Below the pieces are notes generated by a model. It was given only the letters and a program-made list of their open reading frames with translations. It was not told the DNA's origin and did no database searches. A stretch of DNA of 10,648 nucleotides, from IMG/VR virus record IMGVR_UViG_2529292735_000010, one strand, 5' to 3'. Origin of the DNA: a virus. Taxonomy: Duplodnaviria; Heunggongvirae; Uroviricota; Caudoviricetes. A program made the position numbers and the translations under genes. This document shows positions 1 through 10,648 of the stretch, piece by piece; within the stretch, counting starts at the first letter, position 1; the number at the start of each line of letters is the position of its first letter.

Positions 1-1
1 C

Positions 2-166
2 ACACGCGCCCTGATTCTGGAGCGTTACCGCGATGCGGACACAACGGACAAGGGCGACCGCCGGGCGGACGCACTGGATATACAGACATCGGATTTGTGG
101 CGCGATGTGAGCTGGGCCATCTCTGACATTCTGTGCCGCCCGCGAATTTTTGCGGAGCTGTGCTGA
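2..166 (+). CDS. 3' end of a head completion/stabilization-like gene (P2 gpL position); 5' end lies outside the window
   Basis: Frame 2 is open from the window edge to TGA at 164-166, which overlaps the ATG of the next gene (TGATG). Translation ends ...DILCRPRIFAELC. The call rests on position immediately upstream of the X-like gene (P2 synteny) and on recollection, not on a search. Confidence 0.4.
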   Translation, partial: TRALILERYRDADTTDKGDRRADALDIQTSDLWRDVSWAISDILCRPRIFAELC

Positions 167-367
167 TGAAAGTGAAGGCACTGGAAGGCGACACCGTGGA
201 TTCGCTCTGTTTCCGGTTACTACGGCACGACGCAGGGCGTCACCGAAAAGGTGCTGGATGCCAACCCCGGATTCTGTCAGCAGGTATTTCTGGACGCCGG
301 GCAGGACGTGGAGATGCCGGAGCCGGAGAAGAAGAAACGAGAAATGATTCAGTTGTGGGGGGAGTAG
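166..367 (+). pseudogene. X: Tail protein X (P2 gpX-like, LysM-type), apparently disrupted by a +1 frameshift near 217-218
   Basis: ATG at 166 gives MKVKALEGDTVDSLCFR. After an extra T at about 217-218 the adjacent frame reads YYGTTQGVTEKVLDANPG...EMIQLWGE and stops at TAG 365-367, just before the holin start. The gpX-like start and end are therefore in different frames. Because the original frame stays open, the ORF track fuses it with the holin as 133..693. Confidence 0.5.
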
Positions 368-369
368 CA

Positions 370-693
370 GTGAGCACCATTCAAACAGGGATCACAGAGC
401 AGGTTATTGCGTGGCTCTTTGACCACCTGCCAACGGTGTATGCAGTAGGCGCGGCAGTCAGCATTTCCGCGCTGATGAGTCTTTATGACGGACGAACACT
501 GGTTCAGACCGTAACGGGATCGCTGGCGTGCGGCGTTCTTGCCATGGCCGTGGCCGGGTCGTTGCGCTTCTTCGGTTTTCCTGAAGATGCCGTGACGTTT
601 ATCGGCGCATCAATCGGTTTTATGGGCGCAGAGAAAGCACGCGACAAGGTTATTGCAGCCTTTAATCGCAGGGTGAAGGAGAAGGACGAATGA
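370..693 (+). CDS. Holin (about 107 aa, three predicted hydrophobic segments and a highly charged C-terminus)
   Basis: GTG at 370 lies 6 nt downstream of GGGGGAG. Hydrophobic stretches VIAWLFDHLPTVYAVGAAVSISALM, VTGSLACGVLAMAVAGSLRFF and VTFIGASIGFMGA are followed by EKARDKVIAAFNRRVKEKDE. The stop overlaps the endolysin start (ATGA), and the gene sits directly upstream of endolysin and spanins. Confidence 0.55.
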   Translation: MSTIQTGITEQVIAWLFDHLPTVYAVGAAVSISALMSLYDGRTLVQTVTGSLACGVLAMAVAGSLRFFGFPEDAVTFIGASIGFMGAEKARDKVIAAFNRRVKEKDE

Positions 694-1083
694 GCAACAC
701 ATTTAAATTCAGCAGCCGGAGCGAAAAGAATTTGCAGGGCGTAAATCCTGATCTGGTGAAAGTGACCCGACGGGCACTGGAAATTTCGGAAGTGGATTTT
801 GGTATCACAGAAGGGTTGCGCAGCCGTTACCGCCAGAAGCAACTTGTGGCCACAGGTAAGAGCCAGACCATGAACAGCCGCCACCTTACGGGACATGCCG
901 TGGATGTTGTGGCTTATATCGGTAGCCAGGTGTCATGGGAATGGCCGCTGTACGAAAAAAATCGCAGCAGCATTCAGACAGGCCAGCCGGGAACTGAATA
1001 TTCCGGTGGAATGGGGCGGCGACTGGAAGACCCTGAAAGACGGACCGCATTTTCAGTTACCACACGGAGCCTATCCGGCATGA
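690..1083 (+). pseudogene. Endolysin, peptidase M15-type (L-alanyl-D-glutamate endopeptidase-like), with an apparent frameshift in an A7 run at 955-961
   Basis: The N-terminal part (frame of 690) reads MSNTFKFSSRSEKNLQGVNPDLV...SRHLTGHAVDVVAYIGSQVSWEWPLYEK. The C-terminal part is in the +1 frame (ORF 895..1083): KKIAAAFRQASRELNIPVEWGGDWKTLKDGPHFQLPHGAYPA. It contains the His/Asp residues expected of M15 zinc peptidases (HxxxxxxD and DGPHF). The junction coincides with GAAAAAAAT, and removing one A would give ...PLYEKIAAAF... in one frame. AGGAG lies upstream of ATG 690. Confidence 0.65.
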
Positions 1084-1637
1084 AGCTCTGGCCCACGCTG
1101 GGCGTCGCTTTCCTTCTGATTGCTGGATGGGGAACATCCATGCGTCTGTCGTGGTCGCTGGGCCGGGAGAACGCCAGAAACGAAGCGCAGGCCAGCACCC
1201 TGAAAAGTACCGTCGACACCCTGAATATCATCAGCGCCGGGGTACAGGATATGCAGCAGGTGCTGGCGCAACTCCGCGTGGAAAATCAGCAACGCAATCA
1301 GGACGGAGAGGTCAGACGTGAACAGCTACGCAACGATATTGCAAAAGATGAATGCGCCCACGCTTTGCCTGACGCTCGTTTTACTGACAGGTTGCGCAGG
1401 CACGCAGAACGCGCCACGGCCAGCGCCGTCAGTCCGGCTTATACCGCAGACGCTGACCATTCCGGTAACGCCGCCCCCTTCCCTGATACTCCCACATGGG
1501 GAAATCTCGGTATATGGGGCGACCGCCTTCTGGATGCACTGGAAACCTGTAACGCGGATAAACGGGCCATTGAATTACTGGAACAGCGCAGGCTGCAACG
1601 ACTGAACAACGAGGATAACAACCATGCTGAAAACTGA
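1080..1637 (+). CDS. Rz-like inner-membrane spanin (i-spanin, LysB-like)
   Basis: ATG at 1080 overlaps the endolysin stop (ATGA). The N-terminal transmembrane segment LWPTLGVAFLLIAGW is followed by a long charged, Q/R-rich periplasmic region (coiled-coil-like). A spanin partner gene is embedded in its +1 frame. Confidence 0.65.
   Translation: MKLWPTLGVAFLLIAGWGTSMRLSWSLGRENARNEAQASTLKSTVDTLNIISAGVQDMQQVLAQLRVENQQRNQDGEVRREQLRNDIAKDECAHALPDARFTDRLRRHAERATASAVSPAYTADADHSGNAAPFPDTPTWGNLGIWGDRLLDALETCNADKRAIELLEQRRLQRLNNEDNNHAEN
1318..1605 (+). CDS. Rz1-like outer-membrane lipoprotein spanin (o-spanin, LysC-like), embedded in the +1 frame of the Rz-like gene
   Basis: ORF 1318..1605 lies entirely within 1080..1637 in another frame. 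It carries a signal peptide with a lipobox (LTLVLLTGCAG) and a proline-rich mature region (PRPAPSVRLIPQTLTIPVTPPPSLILP), typical of Rz1-type o-spanins. The true start may be the internal ATG at 1348. Confidence 0.55.
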   Translation: MNSYATILQKMNAPTLCLTLVLLTGCAGTQNAPRPAPSVRLIPQTLTIPVTPPPSLILPHGEISVYGATAFWMHWKPVTRINGPLNYWNSAGCND

Positions 1638-2091
1638 TTCCCTGCGTGAAGCCATGACCCGTTCATGCCGATGGTGTCAGGCCAACCCGGAAAAATTCAC
1701 CATTTTCGTGGAGAGCGGCAACATTGAAACGACCGGAGAAACCCCATCGTTTGTTTACCGCTATCAGATGGTGATGTTTGTCATGGATTACGCCGGGGAG
1801 CTGGACGACCTCACGCTGCCGCTACTGGCGTGGTTATCCGAAAATCAGCCGCAATTGTTGCTCAATCCGGAGCGTAATCAGGACATCAAATTCTCCGCCG
1901 TTATCAATGACGATGACAGCGCCGATCTCCTGTTTACGCTCCCCCTGCGGGAACGCGTTCGCATCACGCGCAGCAGTCAGGGCACACCGCAGGCAGAACA
2001 CCTGCCGGAGCCAAAACCCCGCCTGCCATCTTCCGAAGGCGACTGGTCGCATGTATTCCAGGATGTGACGTGGGGTGAAAGCGATGGATAA
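1624..2091 (+). CDS. R: Tail completion protein (P2 gpR-like)
   Basis: 155 aa ORF with GAGGA 9 nt upstream of ATG 1624. It overlaps the end of the spanin gene and occupies the gpR position before the S/V/W/J/I block. The length matches gpR as I recall it. Confidence 0.7.
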   Translation: MLKTDSLREAMTRSCRWCQANPEKFTIFVESGNIETTGETPSFVYRYQMVMFVMDYAGELDDLTLPLLAWLSENQPQLLLNPERNQDIKFSAVINDDDSADLLFTLPLRERVRITRSSQGTPQAEHLPEPKPRLPSSEGDWSHVFQDVTWGESDG

Positions 2092-2719
2092 GGCATTCAC
2101 CCGCGTGGATGAAACCTTTGAGGCTATCCGCGACAGCCTGAATCAGCAGGCCATCAATAACATCGCCAGAAAGCTGGCACAGGATTTACGTCGCGCCCAG
2201 CAGGCACGTATCCGGTCACAGAAAGCGCCGGACGGGACTGCATGGACACCACGCAGACGCCGCGTAACCCGGATACAGGAGCGCATTCGCTTTATCTGGA
2301 ATAACGAAGCACGCACGCTGAAAAACTGGCATCACGACACGGGGAAATACGGGCGAACCATTACCGGGTGGGATGAGGATAAAAACAGTATCCGCACGTT
2401 TTACCGGGATGACATCGACCGTTTTCTGGAAATACGCACCCGGCGCATCAACCAGGACAGCACCAGGCGCGTCCCCATGTTCGTAAAACTGCGCACCGCC
2501 CGCTACCTGAAAGCCCGTGCAGATGCTTCCGGTGTGACGGTGGGTTGCAGCGGCGTGGCCGCACGTATTGCCCGCGTTCATCAGTTCGGTGAGCGCGATC
2601 AGGTTGCGCTGGGCATTTTCACCGATTACCCGGTACGTGAGCTGTTGGGTATCAGTCAGGCAGATGAACGCCTGATTTATAACACGGTGCTGGGCCGGAT
2701 TGCGGAGGCTGTACGGTGA
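2084..2719 (+). CDS. S: Tail completion / virion morphogenesis protein (P2 gpS-like), longer than I recall for gpS
   Basis: ATG 2084 overlaps the R stop (ATGGATAA). The C-terminal region has gpS-like motifs (KLRTARYLKA...ARIARVHQFGERD). Its stop overlaps the V start (GTGA). The ORF track begins at GTG 2075, but I prefer the ATG. Confidence 0.6.
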   Translation: MDKAFTRVDETFEAIRDSLNQQAINNIARKLAQDLRRAQQARIRSQKAPDGTAWTPRRRRVTRIQERIRFIWNNEARTLKNWHHDTGKYGRTITGWDEDKNSIRTFYRDDIDRFLEIRTRRINQDSTRRVPMFVKLRTARYLKARADASGVTVGCSGVAARIARVHQFGERDQVALGIFTDYPVRELLGISQADERLIYNTVLGRIAEAVR

Positions 2720-3297
2720 GCGCAGAACTCATGCGACTGCTGAGCAATATCATCCGCACCGGGATCATCTCTGAAGTTGATGAGAAGTCCTGGTGCGTGC
2801 GCGTTCGCAGCGGCGAACTGGAAACAGGCTGGTTACGCTGGAACACCACGCGCGCGGGAGCCTTCAATGTGTGGCTGCCGCCATCACCAGGCGAACAGGT
2901 GGTAATTGCCTGCATTGGCGGCAACCCGGAAACCGCCATGATAATTGGCAGCCTGTGGAGTGATGCCAGTCCGGCCCCCGGCAAAAGCCTGAAAGAAATC
3001 GTGGTCAGCGCGCCGGATGGCGCGGTGTTCCGCTACGACGCGGACGCAGGCGCACTGAGCGCCAGCGGCATGAAAACGGCCACCCTGCAGGCATCCGTCA
3101 GCGTGACACTGGATACGCCCGTCGTGGAATGCACAAACCTTCTGAAAACAGCCGAGATTGACGTCACAAAAGGGGGAAAGATGAGCGGCAATATCACGCA
3201 CAGCGGCGGCGATTTCACCTCAAACGGCATCACAGTGCATACGCATAAGCACGGTGGCGTTAAAGGTGGCAGCGATTCGACAGGAGGCCCGCAGTGA
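2716..3297 (+). CDS. V: Baseplate assembly / spike protein (P2 gpV-like)
   Basis: 193 aa with gpV-like motifs (IRTGIISEVD..., WLPPSPGEQVVIACIGGNPETAMIIGSLWS, C-terminal HTHKHGGVKGGSDSTGGP). GTG start overlaps the S stop. Confidence 0.8.
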   Translation: MSAELMRLLSNIIRTGIISEVDEKSWCVRVRSGELETGWLRWNTTRAGAFNVWLPPSPGEQVVIACIGGNPETAMIIGSLWSDASPAPGKSLKEIVVSAPDGAVFRYDADAGALSASGMKTATLQASVSVTLDTPVVECTNLLKTAEIDVTKGGKMSGNITHSGGDFTSNGITVHTHKHGGVKGGSDSTGGPQ

Positions 3298-3644
3298 CAA
3301 CCCGCTACACAGGAATGAACCCGGACGGAACGGGAAACCTGAACGATATGGAGCACCTGAAACAGTCAGTCAGGGACATCCTGACCACCCCGCTGGCAAG
3401 CCGGGTTATGCGACGGGAATATGGCAGCCTTGTGCCTGATTTGATTGACGAACCCATGAATAACACCACGCGTCTGCAATGCATGAGTGCTGCCGTGATT
3501 GCACTGACACGATGGGAACCCCGCATTGCCCTGGACGCCATCGACGTTGTCTGGAAAGCAGGAGGCCGCGCCGGGGTGACGCTGTCGGGCACTGTCATGC
3601 AGACCATGCTGAATGTTGAATTAACCATCACGCTGAGGGAGTAA
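3294..3644 (+). CDS. W: Baseplate protein (P2 gpW-like, GPW/gp25 family)
   Basis: 116 aa. GTG at 3294 overlaps the V stop (GTGA). Size and position between V and J match gpW. Confidence 0.75.
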   Translation: MTTRYTGMNPDGTGNLNDMEHLKQSVRDILTTPLASRVMRREYGSLVPDLIDEPMNNTTRLQCMSAAVIALTRWEPRIALDAIDVVWKAGGRAGVTLSGTVMQTMLNVELTITLRE

Positions 3645-3646
3645 TC

Positions 3647-4543
3647 ATGCCTGCCGTTGACCTTTCCCAGTTACCGGAACCCGCCATCATCGCGGAGCCT
3701 GACTTTGAGGCAATTCTGGCTGACACAAAGGCCATGATGATTGCGTCCTATCCTGCCGAACAGCGTGAAGCCGTCTCCGCCGCGCTGGAGCTGGAATCGG
3801 AACCCCTGAACGTTATCGCTCAAACCATGTCTTTTCGTGAAATGCTGTTACGCCAGCGGGTCAATGAGGGTGCACGCGCCTGCATGCTAAGCCACAGCGC
3901 CGGGACAGACCTGGACAACCTCGCGGGCAATATGAACACAAAGCGCCTGGTTATCACTCCGGCAACGGATACCACCGACGCAGTGATGGAAAGTGACACC
4001 TCGCTGAGACTACGGGCGCAACGGGCATATGACGGTCTGAGTGTTGCTGGCCCGTCAGGTGCATACGAGTATTTTGCACGCAGCGCCAGCGGTCTGGTAC
4101 GCGATGCGCGGGCCATCAGCCCGTCTCCGGCCAACGTGACGGTTTCCATCCTGTCCACTGAGGGCGACGGCACAGCAACGGAGGCGTTGCTTAATACCGT
4201 TCGCGCCGTTCTGAATGCAGAGGATACCCGCCCGGTGGCCGACCGCCTGACCGTACAGAGTGCCAGAATCGTGACATGGCGGCTGAATGCAAAACTGTAC
4301 TTTTACCCCGGTCCGGAATCCGAACCTATTCTGGCCGCGGCGGAATCGTCATTCAGGAAGTGGCTGGCTGAACAGGGGCTTATCGGTCAGGACGTGGCGT
4401 TGTCCGCCATTGCTGCCGCACTTCATGTACACGGCGTGCAACGCGTGGAGATAATCGAACCCACACAGAATATGGCCATCAGCGACATACAGGCGGCGCG
4501 CTGTGAGTCATTCACCATCAGCGAAGGTGGGCGTAATGAGTAA
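3647..4543 (+). CDS. J: Baseplate wedge protein (P2 gpJ-like)
   Basis: 298 aa ORF starting 3 nt after the W stop. Size and synteny match gpJ (about 300 aa). Confidence 0.8.
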   Translation: MPAVDLSQLPEPAIIAEPDFEAILADTKAMMIASYPAEQREAVSAALELESEPLNVIAQTMSFREMLLRQRVNEGARACMLSHSAGTDLDNLAGNMNTKRLVITPATDTTDAVMESDTSLRLRAQRAYDGLSVAGPSGAYEYFARSASGLVRDARAISPSPANVTVSILSTEGDGTATEALLNTVRAVLNAEDTRPVADRLTVQSARIVTWRLNAKLYFYPGPESEPILAAAESSFRKWLAEQGLIGQDVALSAIAAALHVHGVQRVEIIEPTQNMAISDIQAARCESFTISEGGRNE

Positions 4544-5066
4544 TTCACTGTTACCGCCATCAGCCAGCAGTTTCATGCGTTGTGCCGAAGCTGTCGGAAC
4601 GCGCATTACAGACATCCCGGTAGACCTCAACACACTGTGGTCACCAGATACCTGCCCGGTGCATCTGCTGCCTTATCTCGCCTGGGCATTTTCCGTTGAC
4701 CGCTGGGATCGCAACTGGCCGGAAGAGACAAAGCGACAGGTTATTCGTGATGCATGGCTGATACACCGACACAAAGGGACCATCAGCGCACTGCGCAGGG
4801 CCATTGAACCACTGGGATACCTCATTCGCGTGTCTGAGTGGTGGGAGTTCGGCGGAGAACCGGGAACATTTACCGTTGAAGTCGGCACACTGGACAGTGG
4901 TGTGACGGAGGAAATGTATCTGGAAATGGAGCGGTTGATTGCTGATGCCCGTCCGGTCAGCCGCCACATGACAGGGCTGAATATCATTCAGGAAATTCCG
5001 GGGAATATTTTCGCAGCGGCGGCAACTTATGACGGTGAAGTTATTACCATTTATCCAGGCGATTAA
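4536..5066 (+). CDS. I: Baseplate / tail protein (P2 gpI-like)
   Basis: ATG at 4536 overlaps the J stop (ATGAGTAA), with GAAGGTGGG upstream. It gives a 176 aa product, the length I recall for gpI. The ORF track's earlier GTG at 4503 is less likely. Confidence 0.75.
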
Positions 5067-5068
5067 GT

Positions 5069-6916
5069 ATGAGTACCACAACACGAAAATTTAAAACCGT
5101 TATCACCGATACGGGTGCAAAAAAATTAGCACAGGCAGCCGCGCCAGATGGTAATCCTGTCCGCCTGACACATATGGCCGTGGGTGACGGCGGCGGTACT
5201 TTACCCACGCCAGACAGTAAGCAGACTCGTCTTGTGCATGAGGTGTGGCGACATACTGTTAATCGCGTCTTCCTGGACGCAACACATCAGAACCGCATTA
5301 TTGCGGAGCTGGTTATTCCTCCTGAAACGGGCGGATTCTGGATCCGGGAAATTGGTGTGTTTGATGAGCACGGCGATTTGATCGCGGTGGGCAATACTGC
5401 CGAAAGTTACAAGCCAACCGTTGCCGAAGGGTCCGGACGTGCACAAACATTTCGCACCATTCTGACCGTATCCAGCACTGCCACCGTGGCGCTTACCGTG
5501 GATAACACCATGGTGATGGCCACAGTGGATTACGTGGATGACAAACTGAAAGAGCATGAACAGTCACGACGTCACCCGGACGCCTCACTGACCGCAAGAG
5601 GCTTTGTTCAACTCAGTAGCGACACTAACAGCGTGTCTGAAACACAGGCTGCAACACCAAAGGCGGTAAAGGCAGCATATGACCTTGCTAACGGGAAATA
5701 TACCGCTCAGGACGCCACGACAGCACAAAAAGGGATTGTCCAGCTAAGCAGCGCGACTAACAGCACATCTGAAACGCTTGCCGCGACACCGAAAGCAGTG
5801 AAAGCAGCTAATGACAATGCGAATGGTCGGGTACCTTCTGCCCGTAAGGTGAATGGTAAGGCGCTTTCAGCGGATATTACACTGACGCCGAAAGATATTG
5901 GTACGCTTAACTCAACAACTATGTCATTCAGCGGTGGTGCTGGTTGGTTCAAATTAGCAACGGTAACCATGCCGCAGGCGAGTTCTGTTGTTTCAATTAC
6001 GTTGATTGGTGGCGCGGGATTTAACGTGGGGTCACCTCAACAGGCAGGTATATCTGAACTTGTTTTGCGTGCAGGTAATGGTAATCCGAAGGGGATTACT
6101 GGTGCTTTATGGCAGCGCACATCGACAGGGTTTACAAATTTTGCCTGGGTCAATACATCAGGTGATACTTACGATATTTACGTTGCAATCGGAAATTATG
6201 CGACTGGTGTAAATATTCAATGGGATTATACCAGTAATGCCAGCGTGACGATTCATACGTCACCAGCATATTCTGCTAATAAGCCGGAAGGGTTAACGGA
6301 CGGTACAGTTTATTCACTCTATACGCCATCAGAGCAGTTTTATCCGCCTGGCGCACCAATCCCGTGGCCATCAGATACCGTTCCGTCTGGCTATGCCCTG
6401 ATGCAGGGGCAGACTTTTGACAAATCTGCATACCCGAAACTTGCAGCGGCTTATCCGTCAGGCGTGATCCCTGATATGCGTGGCTGGACGATTAAGGGCA
6501 AACCTGCCAGTGGTCGAGCCGTATTGTCTCAGGAACAGGACGGCATTAAATCGCACACCCACAGCGCCAGCGCATCCAGTACGGATTTGGGGACGAAAAC
6601 CACATCGTCGTTTGATTACGGAACTAAATCCACAAATAACACCGGAGCACATACACACAACTTTGCTTACAACAATACTTCAGCATACGCAGAAACTCCC
6701 GGTACCGGTGGTGGAATGCATGCAACTAACACAAACAAGGCAGCAAGTAATCGCGTATTAAGCGCAGGAGCTCATACTCACACCGTAGCAATAGGTGCGC
6801 ATACACATAAGCTCGCTATTGGTTCGCACACACACACCATTACCATTGCCGCTTATGGCAACGCGGAAAACACCGTAAAAAACATCGCATTTAACTATAT
6901 TGTGAGGCTTGCATAA
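5069..6916 (+). CDS. H: Tail fiber protein (P2 gpH-like N-terminus with a divergent HxH-rich C-terminal receptor-binding region)
   Basis: 615 aa. The N-terminal ~250 aa is gpH-like ([22 protein letters not shown]..., [15 protein letters not shown]...) and includes the characteristic duplicated [20 protein letters not shown] motif. The C-terminal third carries repeated GAHTH/SHTH motifs. Confidence 0.9.
5600..5830 (+). repeat. Two tandem, diverged copies of a ~44-codon coding repeat inside the tail fiber gene
   Basis: Copy 1 (about 5600-5698) encodes [33 protein letters not shown]. Copy 2 (about 5732-5830) encodes [33 protein letters not shown]. The period is about 132 nt. Confidence 0.8.
6550..6840 (+). 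repeat. HxH-motif-rich short coding repeats in the tail fiber C-terminal region
   Basis: The DNA has recurring GCNCAYACNCAYAC-like units encoding SHTHS, GAHTHN, GAHTHT, GAHTHK and SHTHT within about 290 nt. Confidence 0.7.
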
Positions 6917-7515
6917 TGGCATTCAGAATGAGTGAACAACCACGAACCATAAAAATTTATAATCTGCTGGCCGGAACCAATGAATTTATTGGTGAAGGTG
7001 ATGCATACATTCCACCTCATACAGGTCTACCTGCAAATAGTACTGATATTGCTCCGCCAGATATTCCAGCTGGCTTCGTGGCTATTTTCAACAGTGATAA
7101 GACGTCCTGGCATCTCGTTGAAGATCATCGTGGTAAAACGGTTTATGACGTGGCATCAGGGGGCGCGTTATTTATTTCTGAACTTGGTCCATTACCGGAA
7201 AATGTCACCTGGTTATCCCCGGAAGGGGAGTTTCAGAAGTGGAACGGCACAACGTGGGTGAAAGATGCAGAAGCAGAAAAAGTGTTCCGGATACGGGAGG
7301 CGGAAGAAACAAAAAACAGCCTCATGCAGGTAGCCAGTGAGCATATTTCGCCACTTCAAGATGCCGTAGATTTGAATATTGCAACAGAGGAAGAAACATC
7401 GTTACTGGTGGCATGGAAGAAGTATCGAGTGCTGCTGAACCGTGTTGATACATCAAGAGCACCGGATATTGAGTGGCCAGCTCCCCCAGTGGAATCAAGG
7501 AGTAAACAAGCATAA
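6916..7515 (+). CDS. G: Tail fiber assembly chaperone (P2 gpG / Tfa-like)
   Basis: 199 aa. ATG overlaps the H stop (TAATG). The C-terminal region ([32 protein letters not shown]) is typical of Tfa chaperones. It lies immediately downstream of the fiber gene. Confidence 0.85.
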
Positions 7516-7549
7516 AGGCTTTCATTTCAAACCATTGTAGTCCAGTTTT

Positions 7550-8254
7550 TTGTATAGTACCCTGCTCATTTCGGATGACATGTGTGATTTGGAATTTCAG
7601 GGTACCATTATGAATGTTATTTCATCATTAAAACAGCTTAACAGACAGCGAAATATTAAAACAAAAAAGATAAAGACGAAGGCCAGACTGGCATTTCTAA
7701 AAATGCGATACAGAAGGAAAACATCATTACAGCCGGATAGTTATAAAACAGTGTGCATTTTCATGCACATGCAAGCCATTGGTGACGGCATCGTTACCTC
7801 AGGGTTTATTAAACAACTTCAAAAATCCGGTATGGTGGTATATGTGATAGCACCTTCAAGAGTATCATTCCTCTTTACTGATATTGTTGGCGTGGATGCC
7901 TTTATATCTTACGAGAAAAATAAATTTAACGAACTAAAAGCAAAGATAAAAAAACTGAATGTAGATCTTGTTGTTGACTTCTCAAATTTTGATAACACAG
8001 CGATAACCAGATTGCAAACACTACATTTACTTAGACCTAAACACTCTATCTGTTTTAATCATCCTGCCGTAACTATTTTTGATACAAATATAATCGATAA
8101 TCGTTCCATTCACACATCTGAAAGAATGAAAAAAGTTTTATCTTTACTAAAGATAAAAAATAACAATTATGCTGCAGCGCTTAATTTTGACAACAAAATA
8201 TATGAACCAGCAAATATTGTTGCAAATGAATTCAGGAAGAAAAACAAAAATTAG
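7550..8254 (+). CDS. Glycosyltransferase family 9-like (heptosyltransferase-like) protein, N-terminal portion; the reading frame ends at TAG 8252-8254 inside an A-rich tract
   Basis: The segment KTVCIFMHMQAIGDGIVTSGFIKQLQK...VDAFIS...LNVDLVVDF resembles the N-terminal GT9 domain (conserved (A/L)GD motif after the first beta strand, then a hydrophobic D-L-V-(I/V)-D segment). The ORF track start is TTG 7550. ATG 7610, preceded by AGGG, is the more plausible start. Confidence 0.6.
   Translation: MYSTLLISDDMCDLEFQGTIMNVISSLKQLNRQRNIKTKKIKTKARLAFLKMRYRRKTSLQPDSYKTVCIFMHMQAIGDGIVTSGFIKQLQKSGMVVYVIAPSRVSFLFTDIVGVDAFISYEKNKFNELKAKIKKLNVDLVVDFSNFDNTAITRLQTLHLLRPKHSICFNHPAVTIFDTNIIDNRSIHTSERMKKVLSLLKIKNNNYAAALNFDNKIYEPANIVANEFRKKNKN
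7557..7605. promoter_or_regulatory. 8-bp perfect inverted repeat (GTACCCTG ... CAGGGTAC) spanning the putative ribosome-binding site just upstream of ATG 7610
   Basis: GTACCCTG at 7557-7564 and CAGGGTAC at 7598-7605 are separated by a 33 nt spacer. The distal arm overlaps the AGGG candidate Shine-Dalgarno sequence of the island gene. Confidence 0.25.
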
Positions 8255-8367
8255 TTATATTTAACCCTTATGGCTCTCAGAATAGCAGAACCTTATCTGA
8301 TGAACAGATAAACAAAGTACTAGCTTACCTTAATAACCTTAAGGGATATCACACAATAGTTTTTAAT

Positions 8368-8787
8368 ATGGGAAAACAGATTAATCACAATGGATTGGAT
8401 AATGTGTCTCTATCTCCATTTTCTGATGCCGGATGTTCATTTGCATTGGTTCGCCATGCTGATTTTGTTATAACTGTAGATACTGCTATTGTACATTTAG
8501 CCAGTGCATTAAACATTAGACAATACTGTATATATAATAACAGAATGCATGAAGGAAAATTCGAAAATAATATTGTGTGGGGGCCAAACAGCAAATTAGC
8601 GACTCAACTCACCACATCCGAACATCTAAGGTCTGAAGGGGGCGACGATATGCATAAATTCGACATAATGATCTTAATTAATGCTATCAAACAAGATTTG
8701 ACAAACGATATACCGAATTACCACTCGGATTTAGGTTGTAAAAATAGATCCAGAAACCCAGAATTAGAAAGTAGCAATTCTTTATAA
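8368..8787 (+). CDS. Glycosyltransferase family 9-like protein, C-terminal portion (frame open upstream to 8230, overlapping the end of the previous fragment)
   Basis: The frame reads ...KQKLVIFNPYGSQNSRTLSDEQINKVLAYLNNLKGYHTIVFNMGKQ...SPFSDAGCSFALVRHADFVITVDTAIVHLASALNIRQYCIY. This matches the GT9 C-terminal pattern (short NPG(A/S)S-type stretch, then hydrophobic-A-D-hydrophobic-hydrophobic-I-x-x-D-(S/T)-x-x-x-HLA-x-A-L). The frame is open for about 46 codons upstream of the first ATG in AT-rich DNA, which is unlikely by chance. Confidence 0.6.
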   Translation: MGKQINHNGLDNVSLSPFSDAGCSFALVRHADFVITVDTAIVHLASALNIRQYCIYNNRMHEGKFENNIVWGPNSKLATQLTTSEHLRSEGGDDMHKFDIMILINAIKQDLTNDIPNYHSDLGCKNRSRNPELESSNSL

Positions 8788-8840
8788 AGTAGAAACCTCA
8801 ACAGTTTTATCAGGACCTACTATATATTATATAACAACAA

Positions 8841-8874
8841 GCCGCCCATTACCCAATATGAGGGTATTAGCGGC
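8841..8874 (-). terminator. Candidate intrinsic terminator hairpin in the convergent intergenic region (downstream of U on the minus strand)
   Basis: GCCGC(8841-8845)/GCGGC(8870-8874) outer stem and TACCC(8850-8854)/GGGTA(8862-8866) inner stem with a 7 nt loop. On the minus strand the hairpin is followed by TTGTTGTTAT. No clean U-tract follows on the plus strand. Confidence 0.3.
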
Positions 8875-8883
8875 AATGTAAAA

Positions 8884-9378
8884 TCAGAATAGTCCTTTAA
8901 CTGAACTGGCCGCGCTGTTAAGGGATGATGTGACCTTATCTTTGAAGCCGGACAGCATATCACTGAACGATGAGGATTGCAGACGCTCCCGCAAGTCCTC
9001 ATCACAGCGTTCAAGGGTCAGTGAAAATTCTATCTTTTTCGCCTTACCGTAGCGATCAAACTCGGAACGGGTCGTATTCGTTTCAGTCAGTACATACATG
9101 CCGTAAATCTGCCCGACACCATCAATCAAAGGCCAGGGTCGTCCTGTATACGCCTGCGTGGTCAGCAGCGACAGCGACACTTCGCCACCTGTAATTTCAG
9201 GATAAAGCACACCAGAAAGCACGATGCGCTCATCACCTGCACCGATATACTGCCAGCTTGCTGAACGGTTAACGCGTTCATTTTTCACATGCCGCCAGCT
9301 TTTGTTTTGCTGTAACTGCTGATGCGGCAGCGTGCGCAGCTCAAAAACAAACATGCCGTAGATCATCATCATGGCCAT
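8884..9378 (-). CDS. U: Tail protein U (P2 gpU-like)
   Basis: 164 aa minus-strand ORF. The N-terminus (MAMMMIYGMFVFELRTLPHQQLQQNKSWRH) and internal VLSGVLYPEITGG and RPWPLIDGVGQIYGMYV resemble gpU as I recall it. GAGGA lies upstream of the ATG, which is 6 nt downstream of the T stop. Confidence 0.7.
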   Translation of the reverse strand: MAMMMIYGMFVFELRTLPHQQLQQNKSWRHVKNERVNRSASWQYIGAGDERIVLSGVLYPEITGGEVSLSLLTTQAYTGRPWPLIDGVGQIYGMYVLTETNTTRSEFDRYGKAKKIEFSLTLERCDEDLRERLQSSSFSDMLSGFKDKVTSSLNSAASSVKGLF

Positions 9379-9384
9379 GACTCC

Positions 9385-10648
9385 TCAATCTTTATCGTAA
9401 AAACTGCCACGCCCGGCACGAGCGCGCCGTTCCATTTCTGCCCTGACCATTTCACCGACCAGTTTCGCCAGTTCGCGGGGATTCTGCGTAACAACGTTAT
9501 GCAGATGAACATGAATTTCACCGCCAAATCCGGAGGCAACAGGCTCCCGGTTACGGGAAGTTGCAGGAACTGATGCCACTGGCGATCGTATGGCCTCTGC
9601 CACCGGGCGGGAGCTGGCCGCAACAACAGGGACCAGCGCCGGAGGCAGCGGAGCCGGAACCACAGGTGTGATATTAATTGCGGGGGCAGGCTTACTGACC
9701 TGCGCAACCTTCCGCTCCTGCCACTCCCCACGAACAGCCAGTGCGCGGGGCAGGTTCTTAAAGACAATATCGCCGGGGCCAATGCGTTTTTTCGTCTCAT
9801 CAACCAGCTTACCTGTGTTATCAGCAATTTTGCTGAGTCTGCGTAGCGTGCCGGTATTGCTGTCTGTGAGCGGTTTGTTGTCTTTGGGTTTATCACCTCC
9901 GGTGCCATTGCCATTTTCCACAGGCTTCGGCGGATTGATTTTCGCCAGGTCCCCCTGAAGCAAGGCAACCTTGTCCTGAAGAATGGCCGCACGCTGTGCG
10001 TCTTCGATTTTCTTGCGCGCCTTTTCCGCTTCATCCGGAAGGACGCCAAGTTTTTCAAGTATCCACGCCAGCGTATCCAGTAGCATTTTTGCAGGTGTCA
10101 GAACAAGCTGTAACGCACCGCCAAGAACGTTACCGAATATCTCGCCAGCACTGGTACATTTATCCAGCGTTTCCTTGCTGGACTCCATCGGTGACAGCAG
10201 CGATTTAAACCAGTTAAACACCTGGCTGATCCCGCTTCCGATTGCGTCAAAAACAGGACCAAACCGTTCAAAGGTTTCGCGCAACGGGGTCAGCCTTTCC
10301 ATAATCCCGCTGAACACCCCGGCAAAAAATAGCCCTGATGGGATCCCAGTATTTCCAGATAAGTACGGCAGCTCCGGCAAGCGCAGCCACGATAAGACCA
10401 ACCGGACTGAACAGCGCCCCGATAGCGCCTCCCAGTAAAGAAACGGAACCCGTCACCATTCCCCATAGTGCTGGCAGGACCCTGACAGCATTCATTGATC
10501 CGGTCAGGAGAGAAAAACCAAGACGCAGTTTTGCCAGCGGACCAGCAAGCACACCAATAGCCAGCGACAACGAGCCAACCGTTGCAGTCATTGCCAGCAA
10601 CGCACCGCCTGCTATCAGTAGCTGGCGCGTCAGTGCCGGATGGGCCTG
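9385..10648 (-). pseudogene. T: Tail tape measure protein (P2 gpT-like), C-terminal ~420 codons; 5' end outside the window; apparent frameshift in a homopolymer at 10324-10329
   Basis: Two minus-strand ORFs in different frames (10268..10600, open to the window edge, and 9385..10401) overlap at a T6 run (A6 on the + strand, 10324-10329). The upstream part is a glycine/alanine-rich hydrophobic tape-measure-type segment (GAIGALFSPVGLIVAALAGAAVLIWKYWDPIRAIF). The downstream part continues (F)AGVFSGIMERL... with coiled-coil-like and proline-rich regions. Removing one T joins them as ...DPIRAIFAGVFSGIMERL.... Confidence 0.75.

Follow-up and report, generated by a model that had tools for sequence, protein, structure and literature searches.

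The annotated record of P2 gives the order V, W, J, I, H, G, fun(Z), FI, FII, E, E', T, U, D and ogr, with all of these genes oriented rightward. The map of P88, of the genus Xuanwuvirus, has V, W, J, I, H and G on the plus strand, followed by an invertible fiber segment with an invertase, then U, T, E', E, FII and FI on the minus strand, and D on the plus strand. P88 is inducible, lyses E. coli hosts and has been imaged with head and tail (PMC5285337), and PhiSM has been described as a fully functional temperate phage (PMC6456863). The P88 paper states only that the modules are similar to those of P2. Our search of the literature on Xuanwuvirus, P88, P2-like inversion and Peduoviridae synteny found no explicit description of this arrangement.

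We analyzed a stretch of viral DNA of 10,648 nucleotides, called the window below, in which two tail genes face the rest of the late genes. A preliminary description had compared the window with P2, in which the sheath-to-D genes follow G in the same direction as V to G, and had taken it for part of a rearranged or recombinant prophage. The P2 record agrees with this order. Our analysis indicates that the window is, very probably, the late region of a P88-like prophage (Xuanwuvirus, Peduoviridae) in which reversal of the F transcription unit was inherited in the lineage and is best explained by one old inversion.

Gene content and strands of the window

Pfam matches place R, S, V, W, J, I, H and G on the plus strand of the window. 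The baseplate genes V (2716-3297; Phage_base_V/Phage_spike), W (3294-3644; GPW_gp25), J (3647-4543; Baseplate_J) and I (4536-5066; Tail_P2_I) make up a rightward late operon (2716..5066) that converges on U and T, and the V-I region is colinear with P88 at 96.5% identity. The tail fiber gene H (5069-6916; Phage_tail_fib, Phage_fiber_2 and Collar) is P88-like in its N-terminal part, and homology to P88 stops at position 5804. The C-terminal part of H has been swapped and is like lambdoid side tail fibers, with positions 6336-7481 ~90% identical to lambdoid stf/tfa. The final gene of the rightward operon is the tail fiber assembly gene G (6916-7515; Caudo_TAP, E 7e-44). On sequence similarity, the C-terminus of H and G are of lambdoid phage origin.

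G is followed by an AT-rich island (GC 0.30-0.36 across ~7600-8800) that carries, on the plus strand, a cargo gene for a glycosyltransferase of family 9 (GT9; 7610-8787). PF01075 was matched both on the window fragment of this gene, which is split by a 1-bp deletion at 8245 within an A-run, and on an intact 392-aa homologue (L003:26742-27920). The GT9 stop and the U stop are separated by a 96-nt convergent gap. A consensus terminator scan found no intrinsic terminator between 8787 and 8884. Folding gave an imperfect GC-rich hairpin at 8841-8874, with -19.5 kcal/mol and a z of only -1.4 for the minus strand and a z of -3.5 for the plus strand. This hairpin is at best a candidate terminator of the leftward operon; as with the promoters discussed below, the assignment comes from motifs only. 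At the corresponding position, P88 has another hairpin, of 18 nt (L001:27555-27596). The boundary of the conserved block lies at 8877..8883: the P88 alignment begins at 8877, and in nearly all matches homology to P88-type prophages begins 1-7 nt past the U stop, whatever the cargo.

The tail protein gene U (8884-9378, minus strand; phrog_76) closes the leftward FI-FII-E-E'-T-U operon. It belongs to the GpU family PF06995, which it matches at full length (E 8e-39; score 132.5 bits, gathering cut-off 27.5; profile positions 1-120 of 120), and its amino acid identity is 99% to U of P88, 62% to that of Klebsiella phage 3LV2017 and 39% to that of P2. The tape measure gene T (9385-10648, minus strand) runs past the end of the window, which holds its C-terminal part, roughly 420 codons. 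We identified T by its matches to tape-measure PHROGs (phrog_28 and phrog_17114) and by its position adjoining U. The T region is 96-98% identical to annotated tape measure genes, and the full-length homologue contains PF10145 in its N-terminal part, beyond the end of the window. The Pfam and PHROG identities and the strands confirm what had been noted before, that U and T are on the opposite strand with their 3' ends facing the fiber and cargo region. They also bear out that sheath, tube, E and D are absent from the window, as no ORF had a Pfam match to any of them.

The window copy has private 1-bp frameshifts in X, the endolysin gene, lysB, GT9 and T, the last caused by an insertion at 10331 within an A-run. 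The five frameshifts lie at 217, 955, 1472, 8245 and 10331. T is likewise annotated as frameshifted in the O157:H7 copy. A common slippage hotspot in T was considered and rejected, since the position in O157:H7 differs and the indels of the window are private.

The convergent layout is shared with P88-like phages

The window is P88-like in sequence, with 96.5% identity to P88 over positions 1-5804 and 96.3% over 8877-10648. P88 covers 71% of the window, and the rest is the variable fiber and cargo segment. P88, 503458 and 520873 are 96.5-96.8% identical to the window and colinear with it on both sides of this segment. Judged by its ORFs and their Pfam matches, the window departs from canonical P2-type synteny, since U and T lie on the strand opposite to G and nothing D-like is found downstream of U, and it follows the Xuanwuvirus/P88-like order of V, W, J, I, H, G, cargo, and then U and T on the minus strand.

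The preliminary description had named reference P2-like phages with the convergent arrangement as evidence that would refute a rearrangement. Such phages exist: the arrangement is common to P88, 503458, 520873, 500465-2, P884B11, Shae_phiSM and Klebsiella 3LV2017. The convergent layout is standard in the P88/Xuanwuvirus group, a very common family among the P2-related prophages of E. coli.

The order in the clade is V, W, J, I, H and G on the plus strand, variable cargo, U, T, E', E, FII and FI on the minus strand, and D and ogr on the plus strand. Full prophages of E. coli that carry this GT9 island have the same map, continuing with E', E, FII and FI (minus strand) and then D, ogr and hok (plus strand). 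Indeed, E', E, FII and FI followed by divergent D, ogr and hok were found in every colinear relative examined, at positions that correspond to sequence beyond the end of the window. D is thus missing from the window, as had been reported, but not from the relatives, all of which have it past FI on the plus strand.

Distribution of the layout

The inverted layout was found in 54 of 80 loci with P88-type U from GTDB species-representative genomes, a fraction that overstates its frequency among all P2-like elements because the loci were picked by similarity to the U of the window. Both junctions were inverted in 46 loci; eight more were inverted at a single informative junction or had one conflicting weak match. 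The remainder were canonical (24 loci) or uninformative (two loci). Inverted loci came from more than 20 genera, including Salmonella, Enterobacter, Serratia, Pantoea, Erwinia, Pectobacterium, Providencia, Morganella, Photorhabdus, Xenorhabdus and Edwardsiella, plus one Aeromonas MAG. The canonical loci include some from distant hosts (Azonexus, Shewanella, Thiobacillus and Propionivibrio). Among 5426 complete E. coli genomes, 1360 contained the U-T segment and 1356 the divergent FI/D junction, with both segments carried by ~25%. The idea of a non-canonical, rearranged or recombinant prophage does not survive these results: P88, 3LV2017 and others share the layout, as do 54 of the 80 loci and about one quarter of complete E. 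coli genomes.

Quick neighbor-joining trees of FI and of D, rooted at the midpoint and without support values, separated inverted from canonical loci, with neither kind falling among the other. In a tree of the short U protein, the root fell inside the inverted group.

Origin of the inverted block

In this lineage, the F transcription unit (pF, FI sheath, FII tube, E/E', T and U) is reversed as a whole relative to P2, so that two late operons converge on the cargo slot and, on the far side, FI and D diverge from a short shared control region. The layout is inherited and marks, within Enterobacterales, a large clade of phages related to P2. The reading that we favor, based on gene identities and strands, colinearity with functional phages, prevalence and the clean separation of the two layouts in the trees, is a single old inversion, with one end point between the G/cargo slot and pF and the other between U and D. 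The clean split of the sheath and D trees, together with the canonical order in distant relatives, agrees with a single, old inversion of pF-FI...U with respect to P2. We infer that the canonical order is ancestral and that there was a single event. One inversion is an argument from parsimony, because a trace of the mechanism is absent: in P88 no long inverted repeats flank the F block, and in the window the search for inverted repeats gave short matches only, at chance level.

Part of this had been anticipated. The preliminary description proposed an inversion of the sheath-to-U block with a breakpoint in the cargo site, and the block is indeed inverted relative to P2, with one end at the position after G that fun(Z) occupies in P2 and with variable cargo. 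What fails is the supposition that the event was private to this prophage. A recent inversion or recombination in one prophage, broken in the cargo site and tied to the arrival of the AT-rich island, would account for an inverted block with one end abutting the island, but we consider it extremely improbable. The inverted layout occurs with an invertase cassette, an O-acetyltransferase or no cargo at all at the G/U junction, so the arrival of the island cannot be connected with the inversion, contrary to the link suggested earlier; the inversion long predates the GT9 island. In addition, 1356-1360 complete E. coli genomes and over 20 further genera have the layout, the edge of the conserved block falls at the same 1-7 nt past the U stop irrespective of cargo, and the sharing of the arrangement by reference phages already refutes a private event. 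Misassembly, in which two prophage fragments were joined at the AT-rich island, has a negligible probability. Several 1-bp homopolymer indels do suggest imperfect sequence quality in the window, but 44 complete E. coli genomes, each assembled independently, match positions 6900-10648 (G, GT9, U and T) in one colinear piece at 97.5-98.4% identity and have the island gene annotated as GT9, and the entire window aligned at a coverage of at least 80% in 99 genomes.

Two further explanations accept that the layout is widespread and differ in how it arose. The F block might be switched by a Gin/Pin-type invertase, as many P88-like phages carry one beside U; in P88 and an ST131 prophage, the invertase gene is ~30-40 bp from the U stop, next to the invertible fiber segment. 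A programmed switch is nevertheless highly unlikely, as the forward orientation was seen in none of 58 loci with P88-type genes, the long inverted repeats of P88 flank only the fiber segment (23.8-26.9 kb) and not the F block (27.6-33.2 kb), and the window is without an invertase. The separation of U from D and the pairing of pF with D also look fixed, with a conserved spacer. Alternatively, an FI-U cassette from another contractile-tail element could have replaced the resident one and been inserted in reverse by chance. P2-like genomes are mosaic, as the lambdoid-derived H C-terminus and G of the window illustrate, and we give module replacement a small probability. Against it, D, outside the block, and FI, inside it, give the same clean split between inverted and canonical loci, the dyad at pF keeps its P2 distance to FI, and a foreign origin was not seen: U, FI, FII and T match their P2 homologues and have the same internal order.

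The spacer between FI and D

In the inverted clade, D lies just past FI and diverges from it across a spacer of 124-200 bp. A dyad, T[G/C]T-N12-A[C/G]A, was present in 53 of 56 FI-D spacers and in 4.6% of shuffled sequences. Its center is 75-89 bp from the FI ATG, compared with 83 bp for the center of the pF activator site of P2. In the P88 type, the only one for which the distance to D is exact, the dyad lies ~70 bp from the D ATG, and in P88 itself it is at about L001:33256-33273. The conservation and placement of the dyad suggest an Ogr-type activator site that moved along with pF, and it may also serve D.

A more speculative reading, which we put forward with more doubt than confidence, is that the old inversion cut D from the F operon and put pF back to back with D, so that one Ogr-type dyad could drive both FI...U and D in the manner of P2 pP/pO, while the convergent pocket between G and U became the cargo slot of the clade. 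The literature searched held no description of such a bidirectional dyad combined with a convergent cargo pocket. The spacer between FI and D makes a neat candidate for a late promoter that acts in both directions.

The finding serves mainly as a calibration point. Gene order in P2-like prophages cannot safely be taken from P2, since the sheath-to-U operon is reversed in a large clade that about one quarter of complete E. coli genomes carry. Annotators and scanners should not flag the layout as rearrangement or misassembly. The convergent G/U junction is a recurrent site of lysogenic-conversion cargo (glycosyltransferase, O-acetyltransferase or invertase cassette).

Comparison with described phages

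The Xuanwuvirus phages (P88, 503458, 520873, 500465-2, P884B11 and Citrobacter Shae_phiSM) are 96-98% identical in nucleotide sequence to the window over the lysis genes, R, S, V, W, J, I, the N-terminus of H, U and T. Gene order and strands are identical to those of the window, with U and T converging on the fiber genes and D on the plus strand past FI. Between G and U, P88 has an invertible alternative-fiber segment and a DNA invertase, whereas the window has a lambdoid-type H C-terminus and G and the GT9 island. Klebsiella 3LV2017 (Reginaelenavirus) has its F block inverted likewise, with D divergent from FI, but it belongs to another genus and host and is without cargo between the last fiber gene and U.

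P2 (Peduovirus) and the Gegavirus ST15-OXA48phi14.1 share with the lineage of the window both the gene set and the order within each operon. The Gegavirus, with 50% identity in U, is canonical, as is P2. P2 has the nonessential cargo gene fun(Z) after G, much like the cargo at the G/U junction. FI to ogr of P2 run in the same direction as V to G, and D, which U overlaps, is part of the F operon; in the lineage of the window, by contrast, the FI-U block runs the other way, and D is a separate gene, divergently placed. At pP/pO of P2, one annotated activator site (3057-3087) lies 56 and 55 bp from two divergent start sites, and the inverted clade similarly has one dyad, placed centrally between the divergent late genes FI and D.

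Gene content of the window

We assigned the genes in the window by listing open reading frames and scanning them against Pfam and PHROG. On the forward strand there are a tail protein X gene fused with the holin gene through a frameshift, an endolysin/LysB/LysC region that is frameshifted as well, and R, S, V, W, J and I, recognized by the Pfam/PHROG scans. The same strand carries tail fibre gene H (5069-6916), tail fibre assembly gene G (6916-7515) and a family-9 glycosyltransferase gene (GT9; 7610-8787), the last within an AT-rich stretch (GC 0.30-0.36). The reverse strand has U (8884-9378; PF06995, 132 bits) and, from 9385 to the window end, the part of gene T that encodes the C-terminus of the tape measure. 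These scans found no gene similar to sheath, tube, E or D anywhere in the window, so that the preliminary description was correct in placing U and the tape measure opposite to G and in noting that those four genes are missing.

The C-terminal half of H together with G (5804-7515) differs from the P88 type and is ~90% identical to side tail fibre and tfa genes from coliphages of lambdoid and other types (mEp460, ev099, 2H10, PhiR42_1). It is a host-range module exchanged across phage families. There are also five 1-bp indels private to the window (217, 955, 1472, 8245 and 10331), which frameshift the genes for tail protein X, M15 endolysin, lysB, GT9 and the tape measure. Four of the five are at or beside short homopolymer runs; P88, the E. 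coli relatives and the Salmonella locus lack all five. The indels are either homopolymer sequencing errors or decay of a defective prophage.

The tail block is inverted in functional phages

In the annotated P2 record, V W J I H G run rightward, followed by fun(Z) on the reverse strand and then pF, FI (sheath), FII (tube), E, E', T, U, D and ogr, all rightward, with U abutting D. In phage P88 (Xuanwuvirus, Peduoviridae), the arrangement is convergent exactly as in the window: V W J I H G (+), an invertible alternative-fibre segment with a DNA invertase, U T E' E FII FI (-), and D (+). A Hok/Gef gene lies past D in the P88 map, and tblastn placed an ogr homologue between the two. Megablast matches of the window among phage records were P88, 503458, 520873, 500465-2, P884B11, PhiR44_2 and Citrobacter phage Shae_phiSM, with 96-98% identity to either side of the variable fibre/cargo segment and unchanged relative orientation. 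Two E. coli chromosomes with this GT9 island are colinear with the window across its full length or its right half; past the window end they have E', E, tube and sheath (-) and then D, ogr and hok (+). D and ogr are therefore not lost but placed on the far side of the reversed block, beyond FI on the forward strand.

P88 is inducible and lyses E. coli hosts, and its head and tail have been imaged (PMC5285337); PhiSM was described as a fully functional temperate phage (PMC6456863). A phage with the inverted layout can thus be functional. The layout is visible in deposited, ICTV-classified phage genomes, although we found no explicit published description of it in the literature searched. P88-like prophages also encode ParM and a partition protein (P88, 8856-10131), and 29 of the E. 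coli matches to the U-T segment are plasmid-borne, a hint that some members persist as plasmid prophages.

Distribution of the inverted layout

Klebsiella phage 3LV2017 (Reginaelenavirus; U 62% identical) shares the layout of the window, whereas Klebsiella phage ST15-OXA48phi14.1 (Gegavirus; 50%) and P2 (39%) are canonical. From a set with one genome per GTDB species we retrieved 80 loci with genes for U relatives, and mapped V, W, J, I, FI, FII, T, U, D and ogr onto them by tblastn. Both junctions were inverted in 46 loci, and the sole junction present was inverted in eight more (one with a conflicting weak I match); 24 were canonical and two uninformative. Because this sample is biased toward relatives of the query, the inverted share is not a population frequency. 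Genera with inverted loci include Salmonella, Citrobacter, Enterobacter, Klebsiella, Kosakonia, Trabulsiella, Serratia, Pantoea, Mixta, Erwinia, Brenneria, Pectobacterium, Symbiopectobacterium, Edwardsiella, Providencia, Morganella, Photorhabdus, Xenorhabdus and others, as well as an Aeromonas MAG. Symbiopectobacterium genomes (L018-L022, L068) have at least three near-identical inverted-type prophage tail regions each. A P88-type prophage whose U is 97% identical to that of the window was found on a 226-kb contig labelled Vagococcus sp. WN89Y, a Gram-positive (NZ_JBQPOM010000071.1); the likely explanation is contamination with enterobacterial DNA or a wrong label on the assembly.

Among 5426 complete E. 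coli genomes, 1360 have the U-T segment at ≥80% coverage, and 1356 contain the divergent FI|D junction of P88 in a single colinear piece. Carriers include O157:H7, O104:H4, O26, O111, O145, O55:H7 and ST131 strains. In each of 44 complete genomes, all assembled independently, the segment from G through GT9 and U to T (6900-10648) aligned in one piece at 97.5-98.4% identity, which rules out the misassembly considered earlier. The proposal of an inversion relative to P2 that ends at the cargo slot holds, but the arrangement is not a private rearrangement or a non-canonical synteny, as P88, 3LV2017 and widespread prophages have it too.

Origin of the inversion

We made quick neighbour-joining trees, without support values, of FI (inside the block), D (outside it) and U. 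Inverted and canonical loci were mutually exclusive in the FI tree (54 versus 20) and in the D tree (52 versus 23). In the tree of U, a short protein, the canonical group was monophyletic and the midpoint root fell within the inverted set. Some of the canonical loci belong to distant hosts (Azonexus, Thiobacillus, Propionivibrio, Shewanella). Read most simply, the P2 order came first, and a clade of Enterobacterales phages, this prophage among them, is set apart by a single, ancient inversion of pF-FI...U; given the kind of trees used, "single" is a parsimony argument. A switchable, invertase-driven flip of the block is unlikely, because no long inverted repeats border the block in P88 and none of the P88-type loci has it in the forward orientation.

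The inverted block has one end 1-7 nt past the U stop codon, where homology among all P88-type prophages starts whatever adjoins. The 96-nt gap between GT9 and U contains a moderate hairpin (8841-8874) with weak statistics, which a consensus terminator scan did not call; at the corresponding place, P88 has another hairpin, of 18 nt. The G-U interval matches the position of the fun(Z) site of P2 and varies in content among prophages, as expected of the suspected cargo hotspot. P88 and an ST131 prophage have an invertase and alternative fibre cassette there, the window and 44 complete E. coli genomes have GT9, a remnant in E. coli O157:H7 F6667 (L087, 8275-8847) has a serine O-acetyltransferase gene, some genomes have IS elements, and 3LV2017 has nothing. 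The F6667 remnant belongs to the same prophage family; its tape measure gene is frameshifted at a position unlike that in the window, and its D is truncated by IS elements. The GT9 product is heptosyltransferase-like with a weak Pfam match, and its sole PHROG match is phrog_36326 (function unknown); GT9 is a candidate gene for lysogenic conversion through LPS modification. All of these insertions are far younger than the inversion, and arrival of the island, which had been linked to the rearrangement, is therefore uninformative about it.

A conserved dyad between FI and D

The other end of the block parts pF from D. In 56 loci the start codons of FI and D are divergent and 124-200 bp apart, and the aligned spacers share a conserved core. 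This core has a dyad, T[G/C]T-N12-A[C/G]A, in 53 of the 56 loci, centred 75-89 bp from the FI ATG; the same dyad occurs in 4.6% of shuffled spacers. In P2, the centre of the annotated pF activator site lies 83 bp from the FI ATG and 57 bp from the start site. Judged by its motif, a putative Ogr-type site has evidently travelled together with the block. In the spacers (P88, 33175-33333, and 55 others) the central T[G/C]T-N12-ACA dyad is followed by ACAAAAA, and CACG / CGCGCGTG elements are roughly symmetric on both flanks. The spacer looks like a bidirectional late promoter. The dyad would then serve D too, which has lost its place in the F operon. This is plausible because, in the P88 type, ~70 bp separate the D ATG from the centre of the dyad, and because in P2 the divergent promoters pP and pO share a single annotated activator site, whose distances from their start sites are 56 and 55 bp.
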